Positions 39,334-55,297 of a stretch of DNA of 64,000 nt are shown here, in pieces (position 1 is the stretch's first letter; each line of letters opens with the position of its first letter). The notes beneath the pieces are model-generated. The model made no database searches and was not told the origin of the DNA. It worked only from the letters and a program-made list of their open reading frames with translations. The translations under genes were made by a program, and so were the position numbers. The DNA is from Eggerthellaceae bacterium (GTDB lineage: Bacteria > Actinomycetota > Coriobacteriia > Coriobacteriales > Eggerthellaceae): the NCBI GenBank assembly GCA_015062605.1, contig SUUI01000006.1:15205-79204 (forward strand). Direction: 5' to 3'.

Positions 39334-39336
39334 ACA

Positions 39337-39359
39337 GATGGGCGGCATTGCCGCCCATC
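39337..39359. terminator. bidirectional intrinsic terminator between convergent operons
   Basis: A perfect 10-bp GC-rich stem, gatgggcggc-att-gccgcccatc, followed by tttcattt on the plus strand. It sits in the 32-nt gap between the stops at 39333 (+) and 39366 (-). Confidence 0.75.
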
Positions 39360-39365
39360 TTTCAT

Positions 39366-40085
39366 TTAATTTCGTGGTTCATCAGGTGCTAAATCGTATT
39401 TATGCTTGATGCGCTCAAGTTTTTTGCGCCATGGTGCATAGAGAACGAGTAAGAAGATGACCGTCGAGATGCCATTCGCCAAATCCAGAGGCAGACCAGC
39501 ACCGTATGCAAGCAATGCGGACTGCCACGTGATGGGATGAACATAGCCGATGATGTACCAGGAGTTCAAAAGGAAACCATACTCGAGAATCGGCGCGAGT
39601 AGACCATATCCATACAGAATCGGTTTGCGCTCGAAGGCGCCATGGTCTGCGAGCACGCCTGCAAGATAACCCATCAACCCGAACCCGTACATCTGCCATG
39701 GGGTCCACGGGCCCTGACCTAAGAAGAAGTTGGACAGAAGCATCGCAAGCGCCCCGACCATGAATCCAGAACGCCTACCGAAAATGATACCCGCCATGAT
39801 GGTGATGGCACCGACCGGCTGCACGTTCGGGATGACTGCGAAGACGATGCGCCCCGCAACGGCAAGCGCCGCGAGCACGACCGTGGGCATGATCTGCCGA
39901 AGCTGAGGACGCGATGCTTCAAAGCTCGCGAAGAACACGAGCACACTCAATAAAACCACGACCATCGTGAGCAACGCGGACTGATCCACCTGCATGAACG
40001 CAGCAGAGAGCAAGCTCATCGGAACGATGATGAGCGCTGGTATCTCCAGTTTCTGCCAGATATTTGCCATCGTGCCCTTCGTCAT
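39366..40085 (-). CDS. putative ECF transporter substrate-capture (S) component, specificity unknown (not CbiM-like)
   Basis: A 239-aa, very hydrophobic protein with about 6-7 TM segments. It starts 1 nt after the ECF ATPase stop. The assignment rests on context and topology only. Confidence 0.6.
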   Translation of the reverse strand: MTKGTMANIWQKLEIPALIIVPMSLLSAAFMQVDQSALLTMVVVLLSVLVFFASFEASRPQLRQIMPTVVLAALAVAGRIVFAVIPNVQPVGAITIMAGIIFGRRSGFMVGALAMLLSNFFLGQGPWTPWQMYGFGLMGYLAGVLADHGAFERKPILYGYGLLAPILEYGFLLNSWYIIGYVHPITWQSALLAYGAGLPLDLANGISTVIFLLVLYAPWRKKLERIKHKYDLAPDEPRN

Positions 40086-40086
40086 G

Positions 40087-41574
40087 TCAGATGCCAGACT
40101 CCATTTCTGGACGAGTCCATGTCACAAAGAACCGATCGATCACGGGACGATAGAACAGATTCTCTGCGAAGAACAGAGAAGTCGGCTCCGTACTCACGAT
40201 CTGCCCGTCGAAGATCATCGATGTGGTATCCGCGACACGCGATGCGAATGCCAGGTCGTGCGTGACAAGGAGAACCGTCGTTCCATGTGCTGCAGCACGG
40301 CAAATCGCATCGGCAACGATGTACTTGGAACGGACATCTAAACCTTTGGTAGGCTCATCGACCATAAGCAACGCTGGTTTCGTGAGCATGATCTTCGCGA
40401 ATGCCAAGAGCTGTTGCTGACCGCCTGACAAGTCGTAAGGGTGCTGCCCAAGCACATGGTCGATATGGAGGTTCTTCGCCAGAACCTGAATGTCCTCATC
40501 GGTATAGCCGCAACCTTTTTGCCATTCGGCAAGCTCTTCAGCTGCCGTATCGCACACGAACAGCGACTTGGGGTCTTGTGGCAAAAGCGCCTGATTATCT
40601 TTAAGCAGATTCTTCAAAGAGCCGCGGTCTATCTTCATGATGCCTGCCATCGTGGAAAGAAGCGTTGATTTGCCGCTTCCGTTGCCACCAACAAGCGTAT
40701 GAACCGAGCCCTTCTTCAATGTGAAATCCAACCCGCGCAAAACATAGGGCAATTCGCGCTTGTAACGCACATACACGTCTTTGAATGTGACGGCAACATC
40801 CTCTCCCGAAAACGCGGGGGCGCATACGCCCTCCGCTCGAAAATCCACCGAAGATGCGCGTTCGTGAACCTCACGTCGATACGCTTCCACATCCCTATCT
40901 TGAACTTTTCCGTCCTTCATGACAGCGAAGACTGTAGCGTAATCGACCACGGTCTCCGGCTCATGCGTGACCATGAGAATAGTCAAGCCCAACTCGCGGT
41001 TGATACGGAAGAGCGCATGCAGGAAGTTCTTGGAAGCCACAGGGTCGAGTTGCCCTGTGGGCTCATCTAAAAGCAGGATGCGCGGGCGGAGCGCGAGAAT
41101 ACTCGCAAGGGTCAGAAGCTGCTTCTGACCACCCGAGAGCTCGTTCGTGGCATTATCCAGCCATGGCTCGATGCCAAAGAAGTGCGCTACCTCAGCCACA
41201 CGACGGTGCATCTCGTCTTGCGGGATCGCAAGGTTCTCTAACCCGAATGCCATCTCATGCCACACAGTGTCGCATACGATCTGATTATCAGGGCTTTGCG
41301 ACACATACCCGATAGTCTGTGCCGATTCGGAAGCAGAGAGCTCTTCGATCGGTCTTCCGAACACGCGGATGGACCCCTCGCGCACACCCGTAGGAGCAAG
41401 CTCGGGCTTCATATTGCGAAGAAGCGTGGTCTTGCCGCAGCCCGTGGCGCCCACGAGCAACGTGAGCGAACCTTCCTTCACGGTCCAATCTACGGGGCCT
41501 AGGATGAGCCTATCGCCATATGCGAACGTGAATCCAGAAACCTCGATGGCGGGGACATTCCTTACAGGCTCCAT
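40087..41574 (-). CDS. ECF transporter ATPase, fused EcfA-EcfA' (two ABC domains)
   Basis: A 495-aa ORF with two Walker A motifs (GATGCGKTT, GGNGSGKST), two signatures (LSGGQKQ, LSGGQQQ) and two Walker B motifs (LLLDEPT, LMVDEPT). Confidence 0.9.
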   Translation of the reverse strand: MEPVRNVPAIEVSGFTFAYGDRLILGPVDWTVKEGSLTLLVGATGCGKTTLLRNMKPELAPTGVREGSIRVFGRPIEELSASESAQTIGYVSQSPDNQIVCDTVWHEMAFGLENLAIPQDEMHRRVAEVAHFFGIEPWLDNATNELSGGQKQLLTLASILALRPRILLLDEPTGQLDPVASKNFLHALFRINRELGLTILMVTHEPETVVDYATVFAVMKDGKVQDRDVEAYRREVHERASSVDFRAEGVCAPAFSGEDVAVTFKDVYVRYKRELPYVLRGLDFTLKKGSVHTLVGGNGSGKSTLLSTMAGIMKIDRGSLKNLLKDNQALLPQDPKSLFVCDTAAEELAEWQKGCGYTDEDIQVLAKNLHIDHVLGQHPYDLSGGQQQLLAFAKIMLTKPALLMVDEPTKGLDVRSKYIVADAICRAAAHGTTVLLVTHDLAFASRVADTTSMIFDGQIVSTEPTSLFFAENLFYRPVIDRFFVTWTRPEMESGI

Positions 41575-42488
41575 ACGATGCGCTCCTTAATCTCCAAAAT
41601 GAAGGGAATAATCAAGAACAGAAGGTAAGGCAGGTAACCCCACCACACAATAAGCTCGCTGAGCTTTGGATAGTAGGTGAACTGCGTGCATGCCGCAATG
41701 GCGCAAACCGTGCTTATCACGATGAGAACGCCCATGATAGCCGCCATAACGCCATCGCGAGCGCGAAAGTCGCTTCTTTGATAGGTGGTGCGCTTCGGGG
41801 CAGCACCCCAACCGCGAGCCCTCATGGCCTCGGAAGTGTCAAGTGAGTCTTCCATTCCCCACCCCATGAGCACCGTGAGATCGCGCAAATACGTGCGGAC
41901 AGAATCCGCCCGCTTCGCGAAGAAACCCTTACTTGCGATAGCATCAGAAGTACCTTGCGAACCGAAGCCTACCTGATTATCAAGGTTGGCAGAGGTGCAG
42001 AATTCCTGCGTTGAACGTATCGACTTGGAACGTCGCATGAATTGCGGGACCAAGCGCAGAATCATCGTCACCATGAGTCCTATCGTGGGCATAACCCTAC
42101 CCGTAAGCTGCATCATCTTATCGCTCGTGAGTATATGCGAGAGGTTAGAGAACCACTGCATGATAGATACGAGCATGATTCCCATGCATAGGCCGTATAC
42201 AAGGCTTTCCAAATAGAAAGCGCTGTATCCGAACATGAACAGGACCGTCGATCCGCTTTGCGAGAATATCGGGTTCAGAAGCGTGATGATCAAAAGCAAT
42301 GGCAGCTGCCATGTAAGCGTTTTGAGCGCGGGACGCCATCCACGCAAGAAGATGTTATAGGCGATCGCCACGATGAAATTCATGGCCAGAAAGACCGGCT
42401 GGAACGCGGCCATTGTGAATACAAGCGCCGCAACCAGATAGATTGCGGCGATCGCAGGATGATATGTGTCAAAGGCTGTTCTGGTCAT
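41562..42488 (-). CDS. ECF transporter transmembrane (T) component, CbiQ/EcfT family
   Basis: A 308-aa polytopic ORF with the characteristic coupling-helix Ala-Arg-Gly motif (SEAMRARGWG). It overlaps the ATPase start by 13 nt. Confidence 0.85.
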   Translation of the reverse strand: MTRTAFDTYHPAIAAIYLVAALVFTMAAFQPVFLAMNFIVAIAYNIFLRGWRPALKTLTWQLPLLLIITLLNPIFSQSGSTVLFMFGYSAFYLESLVYGLCMGIMLVSIMQWFSNLSHILTSDKMMQLTGRVMPTIGLMVTMILRLVPQFMRRSKSIRSTQEFCTSANLDNQVGFGSQGTSDAIASKGFFAKRADSVRTYLRDLTVLMGWGMEDSLDTSEAMRARGWGAAPKRTTYQRSDFRARDGVMAAIMGVLIVISTVCAIAACTQFTYYPKLSELIVWWGYLPYLLFLIIPFILEIKERIVWSL

Positions 42489-42510: not shown

Positions 42511-43128
42511 TTACATGTCATCGTATTTCGTGACATAGTACCAACGAACCCTATCGCCATCGCTGAGCACATACGATCCGCAAGACATCATCGGTGTGTA
42601 ATCATTGACTGAATACATCCACCCGCTCGTTTTGCCGTAATCGTATTCCGAAAGACCGTTGATGGAGCGTACATATTCGCTGCTGCCACCGAAAGGCAGT
42701 CCCGTCGCCACTAAGGCATCGAAGACCGTTGCTCCCTCGTCAAGCTCGACCGTCATGTCCGCGAAGTATCCGCGATCGGCATTGGTCGCATCAACGTAAA
42801 TGTAAATCGAGATTGTTGCAGCTTCAGGCTCGGGTTCAGGCTCTGGCACGGGCTCCGGTTCGGAGCTCGATTCGCCAGATGGCGAAGATGCGGACGAGGA
42901 GCTCGACTCTCCCGACGATGGCTTCGCGGCCTCGTCGGAAGCAGCCTTCCCTCCCTCGCTTTCTGTTGCAGATTCGCCGGATTTCTTTTCAACTTGCTCA
43001 GTCTGTGCGGTTGGTTTGTCCTTGGTTGTCTTGAACAGATCACAACCGCACATACATGTGGAGCACAGGAGCACCAATAGACATGCGATAAATGTCCGCG
43101 TCAGTCTTTTCGGTGCTCCTGTTATCAT
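42511..43128 (-). CDS. DUF4430 (transcobalamin/intrinsic-factor C-terminal-domain-like) lipoprotein
   Basis: A 205-aa ORF with an AAGGAG RBS and a lipobox (STCMCGC|D). A Ser/Glu/Pro-rich linker is followed by ISIYIYVDATNADRGYFADMTVELDEGATVFDALVATGLPFGGSSEYVRSINGLSEYDYGKTSGWMYSVNDYTPMMSCGSYVLSDGDRVRWYY, the DUF4430 pattern as I recall it. Confidence 0.75.
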   Translation of the reverse strand: MITGAPKRLTRTFIACLLVLLCSTCMCGCDLFKTTKDKPTAQTEQVEKKSGESATESEGGKAASDEAAKPSSGESSSSSASSPSGESSSEPEPVPEPEPEPEAATISIYIYVDATNADRGYFADMTVELDEGATVFDALVATGLPFGGSSEYVRSINGLSEYDYGKTSGWMYSVNDYTPMMSCGSYVLSDGDRVRWYYVTKYDDM

Positions 43129-43169: not shown

Positions 43170-46100
43170 TTATGCGGTTTTTTCGCCAAGCTGGCCAAGT
43201 GAGAGCCACAAATCATTGGTAGCACGATACCAGCCAGGAATCTTGTCTGACGAAGAGCCAGTATTATTCCAAACTGTGATGTCAAGAACCGTACCATTAT
43301 TCAGCATAGCCTCAACTTCTGCCTTAGGCAAAGTGATTTCGAAGTGCCACATCGTGACACCTTCGTTCGTACCAGCTGAGGTGCCCTCAATAACTTGAGT
43401 TCCTGCAGGCAGATATGAATCCGCGACATAGTTCTCGCCATCAGGAATGAAATCGTGAGACTTGGCAAGGGCAAGGCGCGAATACTTGCCTACAGAAGAA
43501 GTCGAACCATCTTCTGTAAAGATAATCGTGGCGGTATCGCCCTCAACCTTCAAGAAGCGGCTATCGGCCACCATGTGGTTGAACATTGCGCCTGGACCAG
43601 ACTTAAGCTCTGGAAGCGAATACGTTCCATCTTCGAGCACGACGGGCTCCTTGATGGTGAACTCGGCTGTCACAATGCCAGTGTAGCCCGCAGACTCCAC
43701 GCCGGTAATCGTGTACACGACCTTTCCGACAGACGTGCCATCAGAGGTCGATGCAACCGACCCATTGCTGACCGTGTAATCCTGATCGGCAACGAGGGTC
43801 TTGTCACCAATTGCGACCGTGATGGCCGGCTGATGCGGCTGGCCATCATAGAGCACGCTCTCGGGCTCAAGCGTCACCGTAGCCGTGCTAAGGTTGATAA
43901 GCTGTGGCTGGTCACCCTCAATCGCAGCCTTGGTGTGCATGACGTAGAGCTGCTGGACGGACTCGATCTCGCCGAGGCCGGCGATCTGGCAGCTGACGTT
44001 CGCGGGAGCGAAGTTGCCCTCAGCCGTGAACTGGCTGTACCAGGACTCCTCGTCCTCGGGGTCGGCCATGTCATTGTTGGCATGGTCACCTGCGACGACC
44101 ATCAGCGGACGAAGGATGACCTTCGTATAGCCAGCGGCCTTCACCTTGGCGATGACCGCAGAGCACTCGGTGCTTGCGGGCTCGCCCTCGACGGTGCCGA
44201 TGAAGACGTTATCGTAATGGAGCATGTTCATCATGGTCTGCATCTGCTCATAAGTGATGCTCGCATTATGAGCGGTGCCATGGCCCATGAACACGATGGC
44301 GGTGCCACTGGCAGCGGCATCGTTTACGCTATCGAAGCCGGCAGCTTTGCTTGCAGTGCCAGCCGCCGCCATGGCGACGGACTCCTTGTCGCCGTTGACG
44401 ACGGAAGCATCGGCACCGACCTCGCCGAGCAGCGGCTCGGCGACCTTGACGGACTCGAACTTAGACTCGTAGGGCGCGAGTGCCGCGACGAGCTCGTCGT
44501 ACTCGGCGCCATGCATCAGGTGCGTGGGCTGAACAACGAGATTCTTCACACCGTTGGCGACCGCGCGGTCGAGGGCCTGCTGCATGTTGTCGATCTTGAC
44601 GCCGTCACGCGCGTAGATGTGGTTGATGATGATCTGAGCGGTGAACGCGCGGCGCACGGACCAATCCGGGTACGCGGCCTGGATTGCCTTCTCGACGCCA
44701 CCGATGTCCGCAGCACGGCTATTGTTGAACGACGTGCCGAAGCTCACGACCAGAATCTCGTTCTCGCCGATGCCGTCCTGGTTCAAGGGATTATCGGCAG
44801 AAGCATCACCCGTGTCGCGACCGAAGTAGTCGTACTCCTCCACGAGGAGCTTCTCCTCGTCGCTCAGGGCATCCCAAGCGGCCTTGGCGGCCTCGCAGTC
44901 GGCCCAGGTCGTGTCGGTGAAGTACTGGACCTGGATCTTGGCGATCAGGTCGTCGACGCTATCGCCGGAGACCGGCTCGGTCCAGCTGGCGAGGTAAAGC
45001 GTGCCAGCAGCCTCGTTGAGGGTGATCTCGCGCGGATACCACTCCTCGTTCTTCACGGACCAGAACGACATGACGAACGGCTCGCCGTTGGCGAGGTTGA
45101 CGACGGACGTCGGATCGCCGTAGGTGGCGACCCACTTCACCGGGATGGTGAAGGACCGGTCGTCGGCGATGGCGATGGTCTCGGTCGCCGCGGCGGCCTC
45201 ATCGGGCGTGCCGACGAATGCCTTCGAGTACGACGCGGATCCCATGGTCATGACCAGGTCGGCCTTGTAGTTGTTGGAGTTCGGGCCGCCGACCATCTCG
45301 AGCGTCGCGGAGGAGACGCTCATCATGAGGCCGGTCTCCTTGCTCACCTCGAGGACCTTGGAAGCCTCGAAGTCGCCCACCACGAGCGTCTTAGCGTCGA
45401 GATCGAGTGCGAACTGGCGCGGATAGAAGGAGCGCTCGATTGCATTCTGGCCCTGCAGATACTTCTGATAGTAGGTATCGGAGATCGACACGACGGGAAC
45501 GTCCTTGCCCAGCTCATCGGCGGCGATGTTTGTCTGGAACTCCCATTTTCCATCGGAGTTCTGCACGCCCTTGATGAGCTTGTCGGAGCCGGTATCAGCG
45601 GCAATGCCGGAGGCGATGTCCTCCTTAGCGGCGACTGCCTGCTCGTAAGTGCCCTTGTACAGCCAATGATAGCTCGAACCGGACAGCGTGAAGGTCAGCG
45701 TCGCGGAGCCGTCAGCGTTAGCGACAGCGGAAGCGGTCGCAGCCTTGAACATGCCAGTATTGTTGGTGATGACAAGCTCGATCGGCTCAGCCGGAGTCAG
45801 CTTATCTTCAGATGGAATCGCCAAGTAATACTGGTCTGCCGTGGTCGCGGAGGGGTCCTTCACCTTATTCGGAACAACCGGCCACGCATAACCGCAGTAG
45901 CTCTTCGGAAGGGTAATCGAGAAGGTCTCGCTATCGAAATCAAAAGCGAAGTAAGAGTCGTCCTTCCATGTCGACTGAACACTGATATCAGCATTCAGGA
46001 AGAAGCCTTTGTAAATCGTCTTGTTCTTGGGAACGTAGTTGATAACGACATTATCGCCTTCGATGGCGATCGTGGTGCCCTCTTGCGGACCGAACATGCC

Positions 46101-49100
46101 GAAATCGCCACCTGCAGCATTAATGAATTTGACGTTATCGCCGTCATAGGGGAACTCGGTGGCAACGCCTGCGCCAACCTTCCACAGCTGGTTCGGACCG
46201 TCGTTTAAGGTCCAGACACCCACGTTGGCGCCAGCCTGCGGCGCAGAGCCGGCAGCATCAAGCACGACCGCAGGGTTCGCTACGGACTGGATCATGAAGA
46301 AACCAGGGGTTTTCTCGCTCGGGACGAGCACCCATTGCTGGTTCAGAGCTTCATGGTATTGCCACGTGGAGACATTGCCGCCAGCCTGGGGCTCCTCGCC
46401 CTCTGCATCGAGCACCAAGTCGGGATTGGCGAAGTTACGCAGGACGTAGTAGCCGCTATCCTGCAGCTCGATCGTGAACATTTGGTTCGCTCCGCCATTG
46501 CTCGTCCAGATGGAGACATTGGCACCGCTCACAGGCTGGGCGCCGGCGACGTCAAGCACAAAATCATCGCTGAACGCACTCACCAAGTGATTCGGGGTCG
46601 TAGAACCCTTGGGCACAGGAGCCGGATAAATCGTGAACTCGCCAAGTTCCACAGAACCGGAGCAGGTGATACCTTCGATAGTCACCATGTAGGTGCCGTG
46701 CCCAGAAGGAGCCTCGGAGGACTCGCCGAACTTGAGAGCGTAATCGGTGCCCGCAGAAAGTTCCTTACCGTTCAGTGTCACGGTAACATCAGGCGAAAGC
46801 GGACCTCCAGTGACGTTCTTCGCCATGCCGGTAGCCTTCACATCGGCGTAAGCAAGATTATCAGCGGAAACGATCTTCCAAGCTTGGTTCGGACCATCGT
46901 TTGCAGTCCAAACGCCCACGTTCGCACCAATCTCGGGCGCAGAGCCTGCGGCATCCAGCACAACCTCGGGGTTCGCCACGGATTGAATCATGAAGTAACC
47001 GGGGTTCTTCTCACTCGGAACGAACACCCATTCTTGGTTCAGCGCCGCATGATAGGCCCACGTGGAGATATTGCCGCCAGCCTGGGGCACCTCGCCCTCG
47101 GCATCCAACACGAGATCTGTGTTCGCGACGTTGCGAAGCACATAGTTACCGTTATCGGAAGCCTCGACGGTGAACAACTGGTTAGAGCCGCCGTTGGAAG
47201 TCCAAATAGATACGTTTGCGCCACTTACGGGCTCAGCTCCCGCGACATCGAGGATGAAATTGTCATCGAAAGCCGACACGATGCGGTAGGCCTTACCGGC
47301 CTCGATGCCCTCAGGGGCATTGGAAAGATCGAAGGTGCCGATCTTCTTCTCGCCGAAGTACTTGCCGCCATCAACCGCCTTCGCAGTCACGACATACTTG
47401 CCAGCTACGGTCGGGACATCAGTGGTCACATTCGTCCCGTCATCATAGTACAGCTTGTAATCGGTACCCTCAACAAGAGCGTCAGACCCCATGGTGAGGG
47501 TGACCTCAGGAGCAACAGCCTTGCCGTTGATGATGTTTTTGGTCATACCAGTTGCCTCAGCGGTGGCGCAACGGAGATCATTCTCCTCAACGAACCACCA
47601 CAGTTGGTTCGGCTGACCGTTGCCGGTCCACAGACCGACATTGGCGCCAGCTTGGGGCTCGGAACCCGCAGCATCAAGATACAGCGCATCGGAGATGATG
47701 TTGACCATATAGCCCATATCATCACCTGCGCCAGCACCGAGGAGGGTAATGTTCCATTCCTGGTTGGTTCCGCCATTAGCAGTCCAGGTGGAAACGTTCG
47801 AGCCTGCTTGGGGCACAGCGCCCGCAGCATCGAGCACGAGCTCGGGATTGGCAACGTTACGGATGACATAGCCGCCACGATCGCCGATATCGAAGGTGAA
47901 GAGCTGATTGTCGCCACCGTTATTCGTCCAAATGGAGACGTTGGAACCAGCCTCGGGCATCGCCGCAGCGACATCGAGCACAAATGCGTCATCGAAGGCG
48001 GAGACGATATGGTACTTCGTGCCGTCGATCTTCACGGGCAATGCCTTCGGGTAGACATCGGTCATGTCGTAGAGAGATGTCTCGCGTTCCACGAAGCGGT
48101 TATATGCGACTAGAGCATAGAAACCCTGCTGCGTAGCAGCCAGGTTGTAGTTCGTATCAACCCAACCGAAACCGCCACCAGCGCACGCATAGGTGCACAG
48201 CGCATCAAGCACGGACTTACCGTTCTTGATGAAGCGGGAATCGGTATCCGGATCGATGCCGAGCTCGGTCAAGGCAACGATGACCTGGGAAGCGGACATG
48301 GAGTTCTCAGAACCCCAGCTCGCAAAACCACCGGTATCGAGCTGCATATCGGAAAGCTTGGCGACTGCCTTGTCGACAGCGGCTTTCACATTAGCATCCG
48401 TATCAACGTACTTGGCCAACGCCTGGATAGCCATGGCCGTCAGGTCGGGATCGGCATTGGTTCCCATGTAATCCCAACCGCCATCGGCGAGTTGAGCGCT
48501 CAAGATGTTCTCGATAAGCTTCTCGCGCGTAGTCTGGGTTGCACCAGCGTCAGCTTCGGGAATCACATAATCATGGGAGTCAAACGCCAGAAGCGCATAG
48601 ATGGCGGCATTCACGCCCTGCTTGTCGATGGCGTCATAGTCAGCCAAACCCTTGGTCAAATCATAACCGCCGAGATCGCTCGCATCGTAGTGCGCGGCGG
48701 TCAGTGCGAGGATGGTGCGAGAGTAATCCGTGCTAGCAGCGCTCGGACCGAGCTTCCCGTCATTGTCTTGCAGGGTTTTCGCGATGTTCGCAAAATACGG
48801 GCCAAAGCCCATATGGGACCAGCCGCGAGCCATGCCCATGACGAACCAATCGGTACCGGAACCCATGCCGTCATCAAGGATATCCCACACGAGATCACGC
48901 GTACGCATGTAGATGTCGATGACATCATCCGGCATGACGCGCTCATATTCGAAGGTGATGACATAGTACAAAGTGGAATTCCACGATGTGTCATATGGGC
49001 TTTGAATCTGAATGCAATCGAACTCACCATCAGCATTGAAGTCCGTAGCAACAGTTGCGCTCGACTTGCCAGCATAAACATCTGGATAGTTCTGCGCACC

Positions 49101-50240
49101 ATCAAGATAGGTTTCCCCATCCGCTTTGTAGTTATAGGCTTGGACATCATCGGAGAAATAGAGATCAACAGATTCCGTGCCCTGGGGGATTTCGACCGTA
49201 TATGCGCCAACAGTCGTCGCGGGACCATAAGTCGACCCCGTATAGCCATCAGGTGTGAAGGAGAGAACCGTGCATGCCTGGCCATCCACTACAACAGTGA
49301 AGGAGGCAGTGTAGTTGATCTCGATGGCATAGAGCATGGTCGAAGACCAGTTCTCGTCATAGGGCGTCTGAACCCAGATGTAAGCAGGGAGCTCACCTTT
49401 GCTGTCAGCATTGAAGGATGCAGTAACCTCGCCGATCTGGCCGTTGTTACCGTATCCGTTAATCTTGTCGGCAGCACCGGTGTCGATATACGAGGCCCAC
49501 TCGTCATAACCGTATGCGATTAGCGGAACACCCTTGAAATCGAGCTCCAGCGCCGAGGTGCCATACGGCACGGTCAGAACATAAAGATCGGAGGTGTTCT
49601 CAACCTGAACCCAATTACCGCTTTCATCCTGAACCCATTGAGAATAGGTGTAGCCATCTTCGATCAGGTCGGAGGAAGTGCCAACCGAAGGAACGAACGG
49701 ACCGTCCCATGCGGGAGCTGCAGGAAGTTGGACGATGAAGCAATGGGCGTTCTCGTAATCTTCTGTGCACAGGATGAAGATGTAAGCGTTGCTGAAGTCA
49801 AGAGAATCCGCCGAGCTGTCAAGCTCGATGTTATCATCTTCCTCAAGGAACTCCGTCAAATTAAACTGTGCATCAAGGCGGATAGGCGCCTCGTAGACGC
49901 TATCCCTTTCGGCGCCGGTCATATCCTCAAGTCCCATGAAATAATACGTGTTAGATCTGGGATTGAAGAGCTGGGCGCCTTCGTCCATCAGGTCCGCGAG
50001 ATCAGTGAAAACGATGACATCGGCAGCTTCATCGAGGGCGATGTAATTGATGTCCATCTCCTCCATGAACGTATACGTACCGATGACATCGCAATCCTCG
50101 ATCGCAACGTCCTTTTTAACTGTGTCTGCCTTGGCTGTCGCCGGAGCGAACGCCATGCAGAGCGCGAAAGCCAGGAACAGCGATGATATGAGCGCTATCC
50201 CCTTCTTCGCGAGTTGAGAGCATCTGAATGGTCTATCCAT
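43170..50240 (-). CDS. giant secreted multidomain protein (2356 aa). Domain order: signal peptide; acidic N-domain; 2 x beta-repeat; alpha/alpha-toroid; 3 x (ricin beta-trefoil + Ig-like); 3 x unknown module; CbiK-like chelatase domain; Ig-like; 4th unknown module
   Basis: ORF 43170..50324. The realistic start is the Met at 50240 (MDRPFRCSQLAKKGIALISSLFLAFALCMAFAPATAKA|DT), preceded by GGAAGGGGG. The annotated upstream 28 codons run through the riboswitch terminator. There is no LPXTG or lipobox. Domain evidence is given in the separate entries. Confidence 0.85.
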   Translation of the reverse strand: MDRPFRCSQLAKKGIALISSLFLAFALCMAFAPATAKADTVKKDVAIEDCDVIGTYTFMEEMDINYIALDEAADVIVFTDLADLMDEGAQLFNPRSNTYYFMGLEDMTGAERDSVYEAPIRLDAQFNLTEFLEEDDNIELDSSADSLDFSNAYIFILCTEDYENAHCFIVQLPAAPAWDGPFVPSVGTSSDLIEDGYTYSQWVQDESGNWVQVENTSDLYVLTVPYGTSALELDFKGVPLIAYGYDEWASYIDTGAADKINGYGNNGQIGEVTASFNADSKGELPAYIWVQTPYDENWSSTMLYAIEINYTASFTVVVDGQACTVLSFTPDGYTGSTYGPATTVGAYTVEIPQGTESVDLYFSDDVQAYNYKADGETYLDGAQNYPDVYAGKSSATVATDFNADGEFDCIQIQSPYDTSWNSTLYYVITFEYERVMPDDVIDIYMRTRDLVWDILDDGMGSGTDWFVMGMARGWSHMGFGPYFANIAKTLQDNDGKLGPSAASTDYSRTILALTAAHYDASDLGGYDLTKGLADYDAIDKQGVNAAIYALLAFDSHDYVIPEADAGATQTTREKLIENILSAQLADGGWDYMGTNADPDLTAMAIQALAKYVDTDANVKAAVDKAVAKLSDMQLDTGGFASWGSENSMSASQVIVALTELGIDPDTDSRFIKNGKSVLDALCTYACAGGGFGWVDTNYNLAATQQGFYALVAYNRFVERETSLYDMTDVYPKALPVKIDGTKYHIVSAFDDAFVLDVAAAMPEAGSNVSIWTNNGGDNQLFTFDIGDRGGYVIRNVANPELVLDAAGAVPQAGSNVSTWTANGGTNQEWNITLLGAGAGDDMGYMVNIISDALYLDAAGSEPQAGANVGLWTGNGQPNQLWWFVEENDLRCATAEATGMTKNIINGKAVAPEVTLTMGSDALVEGTDYKLYYDDGTNVTTDVPTVAGKYVVTAKAVDGGKYFGEKKIGTFDLSNAPEGIEAGKAYRIVSAFDDNFILDVAGAEPVSGANVSIWTSNGGSNQLFTVEASDNGNYVLRNVANTDLVLDAEGEVPQAGGNISTWAYHAALNQEWVFVPSEKNPGYFMIQSVANPEVVLDAAGSAPEIGANVGVWTANDGPNQAWKIVSADNLAYADVKATGMAKNVTGGPLSPDVTVTLNGKELSAGTDYALKFGESSEAPSGHGTYMVTIEGITCSGSVELGEFTIYPAPVPKGSTTPNHLVSAFSDDFVLDVAGAQPVSGANVSIWTSNGGANQMFTIELQDSGYYVLRNFANPDLVLDAEGEEPQAGGNVSTWQYHEALNQQWVLVPSEKTPGFFMIQSVANPAVVLDAAGSAPQAGANVGVWTLNDGPNQLWKVGAGVATEFPYDGDNVKFINAAGGDFGMFGPQEGTTIAIEGDNVVINYVPKNKTIYKGFFLNADISVQSTWKDDSYFAFDFDSETFSITLPKSYCGYAWPVVPNKVKDPSATTADQYYLAIPSEDKLTPAEPIELVITNNTGMFKAATASAVANADGSATLTFTLSGSSYHWLYKGTYEQAVAAKEDIASGIAADTGSDKLIKGVQNSDGKWEFQTNIAADELGKDVPVVSISDTYYQKYLQGQNAIERSFYPRQFALDLDAKTLVVGDFEASKVLEVSKETGLMMSVSSATLEMVGGPNSNNYKADLVMTMGSASYSKAFVGTPDEAAAATETIAIADDRSFTIPVKWVATYGDPTSVVNLANGEPFVMSFWSVKNEEWYPREITLNEAAGTLYLASWTEPVSGDSVDDLIAKIQVQYFTDTTWADCEAAKAAWDALSDEEKLLVEEYDYFGRDTGDASADNPLNQDGIGENEILVVSFGTSFNNSRAADIGGVEKAIQAAYPDWSVRRAFTAQIIINHIYARDGVKIDNMQQALDRAVANGVKNLVVQPTHLMHGAEYDELVAALAPYESKFESVKVAEPLLGEVGADASVVNGDKESVAMAAAGTASKAAGFDSVNDAAASGTAIVFMGHGTAHNASITYEQMQTMMNMLHYDNVFIGTVEGEPASTECSAVIAKVKAAGYTKVILRPLMVVAGDHANNDMADPEDEESWYSQFTAEGNFAPANVSCQIAGLGEIESVQQLYVMHTKAAIEGDQPQLINLSTATVTLEPESVLYDGQPHQPAITVAIGDKTLVADQDYTVSNGSVASTSDGTSVGKVVYTITGVESAGYTGIVTAEFTIKEPVVLEDGTYSLPELKSGPGAMFNHMVADSRFLKVEGDTATIIFTEDGSTSSVGKYSRLALAKSHDFIPDGENYVADSYLPAGTQVIEGTSAGTNEGVTMWHFEITLPKAEVEAMLNNGTVLDITVWNNTGSSSDKIPGWYRATNDLWLSLGQLGEKTA
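43925..44765 (-). other. CbiK-type (class II anaerobic) chelatase-fold domain within the secreted giant protein
   Basis: Sequence ILVVSFGTSFNNSRAADIGGVEKAI...VRRAFTAQIII...NLVVQPTHLMHGAEYDEL...AIVFMGHGTAHNA...KVILRPLMVVAGDHANNDMA. Both His-containing boxes that ligate metal in CbiK (QP.H...G.EY and GHGT.H) are retained. Confidence 0.7.
46175..48020 (-). repeat. three tandem cassettes of ricin-type beta-trefoil lectin (about 140 aa) plus an Ig-like domain, period about 710-720 bp
   Basis: Each trefoil has three Q-x-[WF] subrepeats: NQLFTF/NQEWNI/NQLWWF; NQLFTV/NQEWVF/NQAWKI; NQMFTI/NQQWVL/NQLWKV. Approximate trefoil positions are 47585-48020, 46870-47295 and 46175-46595. Trefoils 2 and 3 are very similar along their full length. 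Confidence 0.8.
48090..48900 (-). other. prenyltransferase/terpene-cyclase-like alpha/alpha-toroid domain (transcobalamin alpha-domain-like) within the giant protein
   Basis: Periodic helical-hairpin repeats carry small or aromatic residues: GTDWFVMGMARGW, TDYSRTILALTAA, VNAAIYALLAF, LADGGWDY...DPDLTAMAIQALA, LDTGGFASWG...SMSASQVIVALTELG, CAGGGFGW...NLAATQQGFYALVAY. Confidence 0.6.
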
Positions 50241-50316: not shown

Positions 50317-50353
50317 CAAAACAAAAAACTGCGCGCACATAGAGTGCACGCAG
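50317..50353 (-). terminator. intrinsic terminator forming the expression platform of the riboswitch leader
   Basis: The minus strand reads CTGCGTGCAC-tcta-GTGCGCGCAG (one mismatch) followed by TTTTTTGTTTTG. It lies about 75 nt upstream of the 50240 start codon. Confidence 0.55.
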
Positions 50354-50424
50354 CCCGTATTCGCTACGTAAAAGCCAGGCTGACGCCCAGGTTGGACACA
50401 CGGTGATTCGCCGCAGTTTCCAGC

Positions 50425-50552
50425 ACGTCTCCTAGTGGGCGATCTGGCTTTCGGCGAGGGTGTGTTTTTATGCTACGACGACCGATTCACAGTGGCGGGA
50501 CCGCGTGGGAATCTCACCCACTTCTCCCATCCTAGAAGGTCTTTCTTCTGTA
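50425..50552 (-). promoter_or_regulatory. cobalamin (B12) riboswitch aptamer, compact form
   Basis: The minus strand reads ...CUAGGAUGGGAGAAGUGGGUGAGAUUCCCACGCGGUCCCGCCACUGUGAAUCGG...CGAAAGCCAGAUCGCCCACUAGG. The conserved core elements are recognisable: GGGA(G/A)A, GGUGnnAnUCC, GCGGuCCCGCCACUGU and a B12-box-like AGCCAGAUCGCC. A P1-like closing pair joins CUAGGAUGGG with CCCACUAGG. Downstream, CCUGGCUUU can alternatively pair with the B12-box AAAGCCAG. Confidence 0.75.
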
Positions 50553-50802: not shown

Positions 50803-52677
50803 TTAGGAAAGCACGATTATCTTTTGGTAAATCGATTCAATGACGTCTCGGGAAAGGGCCACAGGGAAGTTTGAAAGGCGCTGGGCATTGACAGAGGATA
50901 CAAGAGCCCCGATGTCAGCTAGCTTGCCAGAAATAGTTGTGGTAATGCCTAAATGGCCAACAAAACCCTCGAAAGCCTTAAGACCGTCAATGGGCATTAC
51001 GCTCTCGTTTCCAATCATCAATGCCGCGATTTCGGAAAGCTTTTCTTGCAGGACTTCGTCTCCACAATCAATCAACATCTGCCAGCAATGTGGCATGCAC
51101 ATAGCAACAGCGTGACCATGGGGAATTCCGTATAGACCTGTTAATTTGTAGCTCATGGCGTGAGGCGCAGTGGTGGTTGTGAGATTGATGGCCTTTCCTG
51201 CTTGATTGGCTGCACGCATGATTTCGGCGGCAGCACCAACATCGCCAGTAAGATAAGCCTCTGCATTTGCCATAATTGCGGGAATCGCAATCTTGGAATG
51301 CATCCTGCTCTCCGCACATGACTTCCGAGACCAATATGATTCAATTGCCTGGCAAAGCGCATCAAGCATCGTACACTTCTTTTGGTATGCCGGCAGGCCA
51401 AAAAGAACCGACACGTCAAGTAGCACGACGTTTGGAAGCAGACACTCATTGGTTATCGATGCCTTCGCGCCATCAATATAGCAAACAGCAAAATGAGTCG
51501 ATTCGCTACCAGTCCCGGCCGTCGTAGGAACAGCAACATGGAGAACACCAGAATATGGCAGATGCCCATTTTTTAAAGCAGCGCCATCCGAACTCTCGGG
51601 CATTACGACGAGCTGTTTAACGCATTTCGCAACATCAATGGCACTACCCCCACCAATGCTTATCAATGAGTCGCATTCGCCTATGTAGAAAGCCGTACGA
51701 GCTTGAGCAACATCATCGAAGCTCGGATTCGGTGAATAATCCGTGAATAGCTCATATGCAATGTTTGAATCATCAAGCCATTGTTTCGCAGCAAAGCTCG
51801 CGAAATGCTTGGATGCGATCACGAGCGGCTTTCGCATCCCCAATGCTGCAAACAAATCCGCTGGTCGGACAGCATCACGCAAAGCACCTACGGCGCACCC
51901 ATCTACCAGCCCGATTGAGTCGCCAGAAACCTCATATACAGGCTGCTGCGCAAAATCGAATGTTCGTATTCCAGCCGAAACGCGCTCTAGATCATCGGGC
52001 GTATCAACTTCCTCAACGTAATGGCCTTCATAGCTGAAAGCAGCAACGTGCATGTCCGCGAAAACTGCGTTAGCGGCATTCTCCGCATATACTCCAGTGT
52101 CGCCCGTATCAACGAAACGCTCGACCGCATCAAACCACGTCTGCGTAGCTTCCTTGGACAGCTTGTAGAACGGCTGAAACGCGAAGCAATCCTTATCGAA
52201 AATCCTTACCGATACTTCGCGGACTTCACCATCAATCACACGAGCCTTGAAATCCTTCTCCGGCTGTGGCAGAGATGCGTTCACGGATCCCAACGTTGGC
52301 AAATCCGAGTCGATGACCATCTGGGCATAGGCAGCATCGAACACCAAATCGCCATGCAACATGAGGATGTCACTCCCCTGCAACAAATCGCGAGCAAGCC
52401 ACATCGAGTAGATGTAATTGGTCTTGTCGTATACAGGGTTACTTACAAACGAAATCGAACAGCCAGCTTGCACAAATGGTTCCGCTTCAACAGCAAGCAA
52501 CTCCGCAAAGGGGCCGGTCGTAACAACGAACTCATTTATCCCGCATGCATGTAAGATCCTCAGTTGACGATGGAAGATAGTCTCGCCATTGCCAAGACGT
52601 ACCATCGACTTGGGTTTATCCTTCGTCAATTCGCCCAATCGACTTCCAAGGCCCGAATTGAAAATGAGCGCCTTCAC
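50803..52677 (-). CDS. bifunctional LicC-like sugar/phospho-alcohol nucleotidyltransferase (N-terminal) and iron-containing alcohol dehydrogenase (C-terminal, phosphonoacetaldehyde reductase-like)
   Basis: A 624-aa ORF. The N-terminus MKALIFNSGLGSRLGELTKDKPKSMVRL carries the GxGxRL nucleotidyltransferase signature. The C-terminal half has Fe-ADH motifs (ISIGGGSAIDVAKC, PTTAGTGSE, HGHAVA). Confidence 0.8.
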   Translation of the reverse strand: MKALIFNSGLGSRLGELTKDKPKSMVRLGNGETIFHRQLRILHACGINEFVVTTGPFAELLAVEAEPFVQAGCSISFVSNPVYDKTNYIYSMWLARDLLQGSDILMLHGDLVFDAAYAQMVIDSDLPTLGSVNASLPQPEKDFKARVIDGEVREVSVRIFDKDCFAFQPFYKLSKEATQTWFDAVERFVDTGDTGVYAENAANAVFADMHVAAFSYEGHYVEEVDTPDDLERVSAGIRTFDFAQQPVYEVSGDSIGLVDGCAVGALRDAVRPADLFAALGMRKPLVIASKHFASFAAKQWLDDSNIAYELFTDYSPNPSFDDVAQARTAFYIGECDSLISIGGGSAIDVAKCVKQLVVMPESSDGAALKNGHLPYSGVLHVAVPTTAGTGSESTHFAVCYIDGAKASITNECLLPNVVLLDVSVLFGLPAYQKKCTMLDALCQAIESYWSRKSCAESRMHSKIAIPAIMANAEAYLTGDVGAAAEIMRAANQAGKAINLTTTTAPHAMSYKLTGLYGIPHGHAVAMCMPHCWQMLIDCGDEVLQEKLSEIAALMIGNESVMPIDGLKAFEGFVGHLGITTTISGKLADIGALVSSVNAQRLSNFPVALSRDVIESIYQKIIVLS

Positions 52678-52680
52678 GAC

Positions 52681-53811
52681 CTAGCTCTCCTGCCTCATTG
52701 CTGAGATCTTAGCCATCATCGCATACTTGTTTTCCTGCGGAGTTGAAGTCGGCCGCCCAAGATTGGCACGAGAACCCTGATGTGTAGTGATGACAAGCGC
52801 AGACTTCGCGGATCCCCTCAGTTCTTTCATTCCCGCTTTTATCTCCTCTACGGTCTTTGCCTCGTGAACATCATCAAAACCAGAAGCGCGCAGTATTCCT
52901 GGCACATCAACCTGTTGGGCAACGTTCGGTTGCCCGCCCACTGACTCATGCGCGCCATTTACGTTGAGTACATACTTAAAGTTCGCTGGCATCTTCTGCG
53001 CCATAACGGGAAACGCACCCATATGCATGAGGAAGGAACCGTCACCGTCAATGCACCACACGTTCGCATTGCACCCAAGCGCCATGCCGAAAGCAATCGA
53101 GGAAGTATGGCCCATGCCTCCAACAGTTAGAAAATCGTTGGCATGACCCTGGCCACGGCGCTCCCGGATTTCGAATACCTCACGCGATGTTTTCCCAGTA
53201 GTCGACACAATCAAATCGTCCTCGCCTAAACAATCGAGAACGACCTCAAGCGCCTCTTCGCGGCTCAACAATGCTCCATTGTTTTCTGCTTTAAACGGAT
53301 AGCCTCCAAAGAGGCCTTTGCGAACAACAACGGCAACGGGACGCGACTCAGCTCGCATGGTTCCTAGTAGCGAGGCAAGCTGATTACGCCAATCATCGGC
53401 ATCAAGCACCTCGTGCGGCACGCCCATGGTCTCAAGCAATGTGCAAGTCACTTTGCCCTGCTTCACGTGCTGCGGTTCGTCGTGGACACCTGGCTCTCCA
53501 CGCCATCCAATAACCAGCAACATCGGAATCGAATACACGTCAGGATCCGCAATCGAAAGCAGCGGATTCACGATATTGCCCTCACCGGAATTCTGCATAT
53601 ACACGACGGCGGACTTTCCAGTTGCCACATGGTAACCGCATGCAATGCCAACCGCGTTACCCTCATTCGCGGTAATGATATTTCGCTCAGATGGAGCATT
53701 ACCAAAAACACACGCGCAAAGATTCTTCAGTAGACTATCAGGTACACCTGCGAATAGATCGAGTCCCTCACCTACTAGCGCATCATAGAATTCCTTTGGA
53801 TCAATAGCCAT
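52681..53811 (-). CDS. ppd: phosphonopyruvate decarboxylase
   Basis: A 376-aa ORF, MAIDPKEFYDALVGEGLDLFAGVPDSLLKNL..., with the TPP motif IDGDGSFLMHMG...LNVNGAHESVGGQP. It sits directly after the PEP mutase gene. Confidence 0.85.
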   Translation of the reverse strand: MAIDPKEFYDALVGEGLDLFAGVPDSLLKNLCACVFGNAPSERNIITANEGNAVGIACGYHVATGKSAVVYMQNSGEGNIVNPLLSIADPDVYSIPMLLVIGWRGEPGVHDEPQHVKQGKVTCTLLETMGVPHEVLDADDWRNQLASLLGTMRAESRPVAVVVRKGLFGGYPFKAENNGALLSREEALEVVLDCLGEDDLIVSTTGKTSREVFEIRERRGQGHANDFLTVGGMGHTSSIAFGMALGCNANVWCIDGDGSFLMHMGAFPVMAQKMPANFKYVLNVNGAHESVGGQPNVAQQVDVPGILRASGFDDVHEAKTVEEIKAGMKELRGSAKSALVITTHQGSRANLGRPTSTPQENKYAMMAKISAMRQES

Positions 53812-53814
53812 CGC

Positions 53815-55119
53815 TTACTCCTTGGGAATCAAGGTAAGGACTTCTTTAATGGGAAGAATCATGTCATCTGCTTCGAGCGAACGATGACATTCGAGAATCT
53901 TCTGGGCGACATCTCTCATCGCCACATAGGCCGCACGGGTTAGATGATTCGCATGGATGATGATATTTGCGCCGGCATCAGCGAGTTCTTCCTCGGTAAA
54001 CTGGTTGTATGATGTGGGCACAAGGATAATAGGCACCTCTGGCCATTTCTCACGAAACAGCCGCATGAACTCAAGGATTTCGGAACCATCCTTCTCCTTG
54101 GAGTGAATCATAATGCCGTCAGCCCCACCCTCTTCAAGATAGATATCAGCACGGGAAAGAGCATCTTCCATCGATTGTCCGGCAATAAGCGACTCAATAC
54201 GCGCAAATATCATGAAATCGCGTGTTCTCTGAGCCCTTTTCCCTGCCGCTATTTTTGCAGCAAAAGCATGGGGGTCATCCTGCGTCTGCTTCACCTCGGT
54301 ACCAAACAATGAATTCTGTTTGAGCCCGGTTTTGTCCTCAATAATAACAGCCGAGACACCTAAACGCTCGAGTGTCCGCACATTATGAGAGAACCATTCG
54401 GTCTTTCCACCCGTATCGCCATCAAGGATGATGGGCTTGGTAGTAACTTCCATGATTTCTTCGATGGTGCGAACACGACTCGTGAAGTCAACAAGCTCGA
54501 TATCGGGTTTGCCTTTAAAGGTTGAATCGCAAAGACTCGAAACCCACATACCATCATAGGTCCGTACTTGTCCAGTTTCGGGATCGGTAAAAGAGGCATT
54601 TTCAACAATCAATCCAGATAAGCCATTCGATGCCTCGATAATCCGAATCGGCTTTTTTAGCGTGAGCAGGCGACGTAGCGAACCACGCCTTTGCTCTGGG
54701 GAACCCAAAAAAACAAGTAGGTCCTTTTCAAGTTGCGTTGCAGAAATCCCTCTTGTATAGGGAATCTCAACAAGCTCTCCGCCCCATTCAGAAAGAATCT
54801 CGATGACTTCTTCACGTACGCGACTCTGCACGCCCTCACGCCAATCATCGCCGTGTACAACATAATCAGGCTTTAGCTCCCGTAATACCTTTGCGTAAGA
54901 AAGGGTATCCTGCTCGACAACTTTAACGACGTTTTTAAGATTTGCATAAACTGCTTTGCGTGTTGAAGTGTCAAGCAATGGAGTACGCTTGTAGCTCGCG
55001 ACCACCTCATCTGTAAGCACTCCCACAAAAACGTCGCCGAGCTTTGACGCTTCTTCGATAATATTCAAAATGCCTTCATGCACAATATCCGATGAGATTG
55101 AGACATAAACAGTTGCCAT
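53815..55119 (-). CDS. pepM: phosphoenolpyruvate mutase with an N-terminal cytidylyltransferase-like domain
   Basis: A 434-aa ORF. The PepM-diagnostic EDKX5NS motif is present (IIEDKTGLKQNSLFG), together with DGDTGG. The N-terminal 130 aa or so are TagD/HxGH-fold-like (VYVSISSDIVHEGIL). Confidence 0.85.
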   Translation of the reverse strand: MATVYVSISSDIVHEGILNIIEEASKLGDVFVGVLTDEVVASYKRTPLLDTSTRKAVYANLKNVVKVVEQDTLSYAKVLRELKPDYVVHGDDWREGVQSRVREEVIEILSEWGGELVEIPYTRGISATQLEKDLLVFLGSPEQRRGSLRRLLTLKKPIRIIEASNGLSGLIVENASFTDPETGQVRTYDGMWVSSLCDSTFKGKPDIELVDFTSRVRTIEEIMEVTTKPIILDGDTGGKTEWFSHNVRTLERLGVSAVIIEDKTGLKQNSLFGTEVKQTQDDPHAFAAKIAAGKRAQRTRDFMIFARIESLIAGQSMEDALSRADIYLEEGGADGIMIHSKEKDGSEILEFMRLFREKWPEVPIILVPTSYNQFTEEELADAGANIIIHANHLTRAAYVAMRDVAQKILECHRSLEADDMILPIKEVLTLIPKE

Positions 55120-55297
55120 TGCTTAACGCCTTTCTGTCCTATATGAAACAGATGATAATCATTGTGTATGTATTCCGCAGCTTCCGCCATTGTAATAATT
55201 ATTGATTCCCACAATACAATGGGGGAACGATATCGTATTGCTGAAGAACATTTCCAATTATTCAACCAATATACGCAGAAGACACTCGCTGTTCTTG

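Follow-up and report, generated by a model that had tools for sequence, protein, structure and literature searches.

Among the exported relatives of the cobaltochelatase CbiK, the CbiK(P) protein of Desulfovibrio vulgaris is said to bind haem between its subunits, and going by the title of Lobo et al. 2008 both CbiKs of this organism are reportedly functional cobaltochelatases. In Desulfovibrio the cbiK gene lies beside btuCDF and a single B12-element controls both cbiK-cbiL and btuCDF (PMC545781), which provides a precedent for the arrangement considered here. In vitro, IhtB/FetB of Porphyromonas gingivalis metallates a porphyrin analogue with Co and Mn (PMC13065792), and its gene set comprises a binding protein, a permease and an ATPase, in an operon that is unresponsive to iron or haem (PMC12094164). 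The capture of cobamides outside the Gram-positive cell, meanwhile, is described as 'entirely uncharacterized' in a 2026 review (PMC13616437). Here we describe a CbiK-fold domain in a giant protein of 2,356 amino acids (aa), encoded on the minus strand of a 64,000-nucleotide stretch of DNA from an Eggerthellaceae bacterium (assembly GCA_015062605.1, contig SUUI01000006.1, positions 15,205 to 79,204; hereafter the window, with positions counted from its first letter), and consider its possible role in corrinoid acquisition.

The CbiK domain and its metal site

A preliminary description of the window had recognised a CbiK-type fold by eye in the segment 43925-44765, and the motifs quoted there were recovered upon translation of the minus strand. 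The segment is real and far above chance expectation, since it matches the Pfam family PF06180 (CbiK) at E 5.5e-68, scoring 229.6 bits where 26.2 is the cut-off and aligning from position 3 to position 262 of the 262-position profile. A sequence search of the PDB likewise retrieves FetB of P. gingivalis (9b86, 6.8e-35), Salmonella CbiK (1qgo, 1.3e-34) and the periplasmic CbiK of D. vulgaris (2xvx, 2.1e-27). Furthermore, an AlphaFold2 model of the domain together with the 75 residues preceding it, the pre-domain described below (pLDDT 85.5, pTM 0.85), gives target-normalised TM-scores of 0.86-0.89 to the same three proteins in Foldseek (0.89 for 1qgo, 0.87 for 9b86 and 0.87 for 2xvz), with SirB at about 0.69 against the same model. 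The two alpha/beta halves that form a cleft in class II chelatases are both present in the model, and the original fold assignment stands.

In the alignment from the PDB search, F1834, H1987, E2018 and H2053 correspond to Phe10, His145, Glu175 and His207 of the Salmonella enzyme, in which the C-terminal half contributes the two catalytic histidines, His145 and His207 (PMC7689651), and Phe10 adjoins the metal in the product complex (PMC4063343), and the equivalents of all four residues are invariant in 56 homologues. The earlier statement that two metal-ligand His boxes are intact was right insofar as both catalytic histidines are present, in FMGHGT and VAGDHANND, but the VVQPTHLMHGAEYDEL motif belongs to the N-terminal half of the fold, which provides no catalytic His in CbiK. 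The N-terminal half also holds H1910, in the motif HLMH (aa 1907-1910, window 44514-44525), which is preceded by Met and is invariant in the family alignment; in the PDB-search alignment its place is taken by Pro or Asn in FetB, in CbiK(P) and in the Salmonella enzyme, and H1910 is a candidate for an additional ligand in the cleft.

Export of the giant protein is supported by its N-terminal signal peptide, as the sole hydrophobic stretch found (19-mer peak) spans aa 10-38 and ends in ATAKA. A role as a cytoplasmic biosynthetic cobaltochelatase was considered and rejected because of this signal peptide and because the domain reaches just 175.7 bits against NF047852, the NCBIfam equivalog model of sirohydrochlorin cobaltochelatase, which has a cut-off of 400; the earlier view that the domain is not a biosynthetic enzyme is hence borne out.

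A family of exported CbiK modules

Exported CbiK-like proteins had been supposed to be rare, and this they are not. A protein search with the window domain returned at least 8,000 matches, the best of which are proteins of 350-480 aa that are 72-75% identical, and scanning species-representative genomes with two family-specific peptides gave at least 600 stretches, at least 597 of which were confirmed to encode the module of pre-domain plus CbiK, at 66-72% identity. Hosts of the module include Lachnospiraceae, Faecalibacterium, Gemmiger, Oscillospiraceae, Treponema, Bulleidia and Mogibacterium. A signal peptide is found in nearly all family members and a lipobox in most, and the pre-domain, a conserved helical segment in front of CbiK (...AAKAAWDALTD.QKELVE..DYFGRDTGDAS...) with helices modelled at pLDDT about 90, is present in 83 of 84 loci.

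The module is 66-76% identical across the family, spanning phyla, and for this reason it is very unlikely indeed that the window domain is a structural spacer or a decayed relic without ligand function, as might otherwise be suspected from its being embedded among many repeated structural beta-domains. Moreover, about 150 positions are invariant in the module alignment, every catalytic residue included, and hundreds of genomes keep the module as a free-standing lipoprotein. The preliminary description had also argued against a relic, from the retained histidines; the relic is indeed disfavoured, by the degree of identity, but the histidines are a weak argument and do not discriminate between roles, since the exported homologues characterised so far keep them and still chelate in vitro. 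The G+C content is 60-63% across MF3 (one of the beta-sandwich domains treated below), pre-domain and CbiK (window 43800-45600) as against 51-58% elsewhere in the gene and operon, and this, together with the fact that modules of Firmicutes and Treponema match that of the window at 66-76% protein identity, hints that the module may have been acquired horizontally.

A cobalamin riboswitch is located immediately upstream of the module gene in 8 of 8 loci by Rfam (66-112 bits) and in 73 of the 76 loci having enough leader sequence when an nhmmer profile built from the Rfam-found examples is applied, and scores of RF00174 for the loci of orthologous modules outside the window range from 65 to 121 bits. 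Rfam and the profile were used in place of a search for the B12-box GCCACTG, which missed most riboswitches, including one of 97.7 bits at locus L001 on a Faecalibacterium contig. Downstream of the module, the 84 loci encode a NEAT-like lipoprotein of 281 aa (80 loci), a Peripla_BP_2 protein (68), a FecCD permease (65) and an ATP-binding cassette (ABC) ATPase (70), and in 21 of 79 cases the CbiK lipoprotein itself carries a NEAT-like domain as a fusion. Relatives of the energy-coupling factor (ECF) S component, the 308-aa membrane protein, the DUF4430 gene, the toroid and the ricin parts found in the window occur in none of 80 loci, and the architecture of the window is therefore unusual within the family.

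Some loci deviate from the common pattern. Tandem CbiK modules, each with a pre-domain of its own, are found at L021, L030 and L088 (9152-11443), in open reading frames (ORFs) of up to 889-1,012 aa, and in P0258, which has 1,520 aa. At L001 the ABC ATPase of the BtuFCD-like importer and CbiD, a methyltransferase of corrin-ring synthesis, form one fusion protein, making for an unusual physical tie of an importer to ring biosynthesis. Lipoprotein CbiK operons of Firmicutes-like appearance are furthermore labelled as belonging to unrelated phyla at L023 (Thermoguttaceae) and L028 (Bacteroides uniformis), and these taxon labels probably reflect mis-binning or contamination. A literature search did not turn up any account of CbiK lipoproteins exported by Gram-positive bacteria, with the limit that subscription journals were mostly outside its coverage and an earlier mention is possible; the family is large, common in gut anaerobes, found next to B12 importers and apparently undescribed.

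Putative riboswitch leader and importer genes in the window

The leader of the giant gene contains a putative adenosylcobalamin (AdoCbl)-type cobalamin riboswitch aptamer that matches RF01482 with 44.5 bits and an E-value of 1.2e-6, and which was missed in a default Rfam scan because this score is below the gathering score of 50. The hairpin and T-run that follow are probably its expression platform, and with a putative aptamer and a terminator both present the proposed B12 regulation of the gene is supported.

Four genes are tightly packed behind the giant gene on the same strand. The S component matches ECF-ribofla_trS of Pfam at 1e-13 and chain A of 6FNP at 7.5e-12, the next PDB match being at 0.099, and 6FNP is the ECF-CbrT vitamin B12 transporter (PMC5997447). 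The double ATPase contains ABC_tran twice at 3.4e-52 and matches TIGR04520 (1e-80) and TIGR04521 (3e-77), in both cases below the cut-off of the model, and its gene start is overlapped by the end of the gene for the 308-aa membrane protein. The gene beside the giant gene encodes a match to PF14478 (DUF4430; 1.5e-17, 64.2 bits against a cut-off of 23.8), and it is with DUF4430 that B12 binders of the transcobalamin type end at their C-terminus (PMC4350170). A hairpin between the convergent genes probably marks the end of the operon.

MF domains and their NEAT-like relatives

Three domains in front of the pre-domain are here named MF1-3 after an invariant Met-Phe near each start (GMFG, GMFK, and LMM where the consensus has KMFK). 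They are modelled as three beta-sandwiches at pLDDT 88.4 (AlphaFold2), for which Foldseek gives generic immunoglobulin (Ig)-like matches only, at low TM. Stand-alone homologues of MF1-3 are about 50% identical and lack annotation in Pfam; their anchors are of the SLH, LysM, LPXTG or choline-binding type. Such domains, also found at L085 (8001-9707), L099, L110 and L116, mark an unannotated surface-protein family whose members individually follow a cobalamin riboswitch. One homologue from Oscillospiraceae has its own riboswitch of 121 bits and directly follows an operon of NEAT-like, binding-protein, FecCD and ABC genes. Since hidden Markov models (HMMs) of the NEAT-like lipoprotein gave a marginal match of just 8.8 bits on the giant protein, a profile-profile comparison was needed, and in hhalign the first domain of that lipoprotein is matched by MF2 (Prob 96.5, E 7e-10) and by MF3 (Prob 88.9). 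Judged by these profiles, MF2 and MF3 are remote homologues of the NEAT-like domains of the partner lipoprotein.

When the C-terminal 1,001 residues of the giant protein were searched exhaustively, proteins of 970-1,623 aa were recovered that have MF, pre-domain and CbiK as one continuous block, and some such fusions carry cell-wall anchors (CWB2 in P0252, choline-binding repeats in P0256). Of 80 metagenome loci with MF relatives, 61 show riboswitch-like matches, about 50 have the importer genes and 32 have CbiK, with MF and CbiK in a single ORF at 4 of the 80. The C-terminal domain, the Ig-like linker (aa 2109-2199) and the N-terminal repeat of the giant protein recur among these loci as well, and at each of the 6 MF loci scanned with Rfam the multi-domain gene is immediately preceded by a cobalamin riboswitch.

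The partner lipoprotein itself (L001 9381-10226) has two NEAT-like domains, the first with the motif DGxYTA...SSMFH, and matches Pfam NEAT (PF05031) at 2.6e-5 with 25.1 bits, below the cut-off of 32.8. NEAT-type domains are classic haem relay modules, FecCD/Peripla_BP_2 importers transport haem too, and FetB is the top sequence match of solved structure, all of which could point to binding of haem or porphyrin for iron or porphyrin acquisition, a role proposed for IhtB/FetB and CbiK(P), with the NEAT-like partners as a Gram-positive haem relay. Such a function is however quite improbable, since cobalamin riboswitch control is found at essentially every locus examined, with no recognisable iron regulation, and since the importer of the window is CbrT-like. 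In addition, GAEYD of the window domain aligns with GEEFH of CbiK(P) in the PDB-search alignment, placing an Asp at the position of His96 (chain numbering), which we take to be the axial haem ligand of CbiK(P). By analogy with the Isd/Shp haem relay, the occurrence of a NEAT-like lipoprotein beside exported CbiK suggests a relay for corrinoids.

Proposed function

The genomic context favours corrinoid acquisition, although it cannot separate binding from catalysis, and we assign a probability of roughly one half to the CbiK module of the window functioning in extracellular corrinoid capture and hand-off. This function is favoured because control by B12 riboswitches is the one constant across CbrT-type ECF and BtuFCD-like importers, because the modules fused to or found beside CbiK are binders of cofactors, and because importers of the Peripla_BP_2/FecCD class transport chelates and B12, as opposed to free ions. 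Scarcity of B12 would, as aptamer and terminator suggest, permit read-through at the leader riboswitch, and the giant protein, the DUF4430 lipoprotein and the ECF importer with its CbrT-like S component would then be made. The cleft, which in cytoplasmic CbiK is for a metallated tetrapyrrole, would bind a corrinoid or incomplete corrinoid, with the His/Glu cluster of H1987, E2018 and H2053 and the family-specific H1910 facing the central cobalt. The NEAT-related beta-sandwich domains, the toroid and DUF4430 may share in capture and in transfer to the membrane transporter, presumably in the manner of a relay, and the protein would be retained at the surface, possibly via the ricin-type lectin modules (Table 1).

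Several observations weigh against corrinoid capture. The exported CbiK homologues that have been studied bind haem or porphyrins and in vitro behave as chelatases, not as corrinoid binders (PMC13065792, PMC12094164). The strict conservation of the catalytic residues, as seen in the alignments, would fit catalysis equally well. Corrin-ring biosynthesis genes are found within 10 kb of about 33 of 81 loci, which fits a supply of cobalt or precursor, and at L001 (12399-14312) the ATPase-CbiD fusion is followed by genes of the cbiL/G/H/J type. In the window, the leader aptamer does not reach the gathering score of its model, the toroid could not be linked to the transcobalamin alpha-domain (Cobalamin_bind) by Pfam or by PDB profile search, and Pfam, NCBIfam and PDB sequence searches did not reveal an EcfT (CbiQ) signature in the membrane protein of 308 aa, although this protein may be a highly divergent EcfT or another coupling subunit. 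Finally, of the earlier notion of a surface protein it is export that is supported, by the signal peptide, but neither a sortase motif (LPXTG) nor a cell-wall anchor was found in the 2,356 aa.

Extracellular handling of cobalt, whereby the His/Glu/His site would capture Co2+ or put cobalt into a tetrapyrrole or corrin precursor for B12 synthesis or salvage, is the main alternative but somewhat unlikely. B12 riboswitches often control cobalt uptake, and cbiD, cbiG or cbiB are the genes found near the 33 loci mentioned above, but the importer of the window has a CbrT-like S component and no CbiMN cobalt module, and the partner elsewhere belongs to an importer class that is not one for free ions. 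The invariance of all metal-site residues in the 56 homologues, the ATPase-CbiD fusion of L001 and the exported CbiK copies found immediately before cbi genes at L088 would all be accounted for by cobalt handling; the DUF4430 and NEAT-related neighbours and fusions are however binders of large cofactors, and we know of no extracellular tetrapyrrole substrate. The Co and Mn chelatase activity that the exported relative FetB has in vitro (PMC13065792) likewise speaks for cobalt handling.

A further alternative is that the exported module is still an enzyme outside the cell, which inserts, removes or swaps the metal of scavenged corrinoids or of corrin or porphyrin precursors. Cobalt would, for example, be stripped from unusable analogues, or a salvaged precursor would be metallated, with the product passing via the NEAT-related domains to the importer. 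This is rather improbable, but if true it would be the first case within B12 salvage of tetrapyrrole (de)chelation outside the cell, in a Gram-positive corrinoid relay of shared domains.

Architecture of the giant protein and its surroundings

The features of the locus are collected in Table 1. The ORF product is identical to MBE6464481.1, annotated 'hypothetical protein' in an Eggerthellaceae metagenome-assembled genome, with an exact match on 2 contigs, and its reading frame opens with an ATG at 50240 that is preceded by the Shine-Dalgarno sequence GGAAGGGGG.

Table 1. Features of the giant gene, its leader and the genes behind it (window positions).
Feature	Position	Strand	Basis
Putative AdoCbl-type cobalamin riboswitch aptamer	50388..50552	-	RF01482, full model 1-149
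13-pair terminator hairpin and T-run	50326..50356	-	terminator scan
Giant secreted multi-domain protein, 2,356 aa	43170..50240	-	ORF list; exact protein match
Sec-type signal peptide, aa 1-38, ...APATAKA/DTV	50127..50240	-	hydrophobicity
N-terminal domain and two related beta-rich repeats, aa 39-432	48945..50126	-	relatives only
alpha/alpha-toroid domain, aa 433-732	48045..48944	-	weak Pfam, PDB profile search
Three ricin-B beta-trefoil lectin modules and two interleaved Ig-like domains, aa 733-1355	46176..48044	-	Pfam
Three beta-sandwich MF domains, MF1-3, aa 1356-1752	44985..46175	-	AlphaFold2, hhalign
Helical pre-domain, aa 1753-1827, ...DYFGRDTGDAS...	44760..44984	-	alignments, AlphaFold2
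CbiK-fold domain, aa 1828-2108	43917..44759	-	Pfam, PDB sequence search, AlphaFold2, residue alignment
Ig-like linker domain, aa 2109-2199	43644..43916	-	relatives only
C-terminal domain, aa 2200-2356	43173..43643	-	relatives only
DUF4430 protein, signal peptide/probable lipobox, Ser/Pro/Glu-rich linker	42511..43128	-	Pfam
308-aa polytopic membrane protein, putative ECF T component	41562..42488	-	position only
Fused double ECF-type ATPase, EcfA-A'	40087..41574	-	Pfam, NCBIfam
ECF S component, CbrT-like	39366..40085	-	Pfam, PDB search
11-pair hairpin, 8 G-C, between convergent genes	39336..39360		terminator scan

The N-terminal part (aa 39-432) has no family match in Pfam, and relatives of its repeat region, 43% identical, are found in the riboswitch-preceded surface proteins L121 and L126. 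The toroid matches SQHop_cyclase_C and Prenyltrans weakly in Pfam and the toroids of terpene cyclases in the PDB at 3.8e-13 by profile, and homologues of this region usually have DUF4430 in the same polypeptide, as in P0242, P0244 and P0245, with or without SLH. Toroid and DUF4430 are thus parts of a single polypeptide in these three proteins and of separate genes in the window, and by analogy the two could be a split transcobalamin-like binder.

The ricin-B region is matched by RicinB_lectin_2 at 8e-66 and Ricin_B_lectin at 8.2e-35 (Pfam). Its three trefoils are near-identical, interleaved with the Ig-like domains, and occupy the place where relatives have their anchors (SLH, CWB2 or choline-binding repeats); they may bind glycans of the bacterium's own surface or of the host. 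The Ig-like linker has 36-38% identical relatives in the surface proteins L113 and L114 and no Pfam match, and copies of the C-terminal domain, 50-59% identical, are found in the riboswitch-preceded multi-domain proteins L106, L116, L121 and L153. The C-terminal domain (DGTYS...MF) looks by eye similar to the NEAT-like lipoprotein domains, which was unsupported in every search, and its relatives mark it as a separate domain type.

Just upstream of the locus, at 50803-56128 on the minus strand, genes are found for a phosphoenolpyruvate (PEP) mutase-cytidylyltransferase fusion, a thiamine pyrophosphate (TPP)-dependent decarboxylase, a fusion of a nucleotidyltransferase with an Fe-alcohol dehydrogenase, and LicD. 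The cluster resembles those for phosphonate biosynthesis and transfer, and suggests that a surface glycan may be decorated with phosphonate.

Comparison with known systems

The CbiK module with its pre-domain, the NEAT-related beta-sandwich family and the shuffled partner domains are candidates for cobamide capture outside the Gram-positive cell. With few exceptions they are controlled by cobalamin riboswitches and lie beside B12-type importers, and they occur in many abundant gut taxa such as Faecalibacterium, Roseburia, Blautia, Butyrivibrio and Treponema. The module is small, well predicted and easily expressed, so that the question of Gram-positive capture becomes directly testable: corrinoid binding by the module would mean that an enzyme fold was co-opted into a vitamin receptor, and if it still catalyses metal exchange, this would be new extracellular tetrapyrrole chemistry. 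The findings also suggest that the long-puzzling FetB and CbiK(P) merit a second look in the context of B12.

The cytoplasmic reference point is CbiK of Salmonella enterica (1qgo/2xwp), which shares the fold (TM 0.89) and the set of Phe10, His145, Glu175 and His207 with the window domain but is a single-domain enzyme of the cbi pathway, whereas the window domain is exported and falls below the NF047852 cut-off (175.7 versus 400). CbiK(P) of D. vulgaris (2xvx/2xvz) is closer in setting, as it combines the CbiK fold with an export signal (TM 0.87), keeps the catalytic residues, and is encoded in a cluster with btuCDF under control of a B12-element (PMC545781). It is however a stand-alone, periplasmic protein of a diderm host, to which the window domain is about 32% identical. 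The latter additionally has the helical pre-domain and extra residues inserted between its two halves, and it is fused into a protein of 2,356 aa and paired with an ECF importer. IhtB/FetB of P. gingivalis (9b86) is likewise an exported CbiK-fold protein (6.8e-35, TM 0.87), in this case a lipoprotein, but one with an outer-membrane anchor and a TonB-dependent receptor as partner that has been studied as a haem and Mn-porphyrin protein; it has no pre-domain and no fusion partners, and a link to a riboswitch was not found in the FetB literature examined.

Two further systems resemble the locus in function or in the importer. The BtuG/BtuH/BtuJ/BtuK relay of Bacteroides consists of extracellular accessory proteins under riboswitch control, which supply a B12 importer (PMC13616437), and is as such a functional analogue, although the folds are unrelated and the relay operates at a diderm outer membrane. 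ECF-CbrT of Lactobacillus delbrueckii (6FNP) has the S component that is the closest solved relative of the one in the window (7.5e-12), and both have an ECF ATPase; extracellular accessory proteins of ECF-CbrT are not described in the literature examined, and the putative T component of the window is unmatched in Pfam and PDB. On the sequence comparisons made here, the window domain is a member of the group of exported CbiK proteins found beside a tetrapyrrole- or B12-type importer, and within this group it is set apart from CbiK(P) and FetB by its pre-domain, the insertion between the halves, H1910, its fusion into a giant protein and its pairing with an ECF importer.

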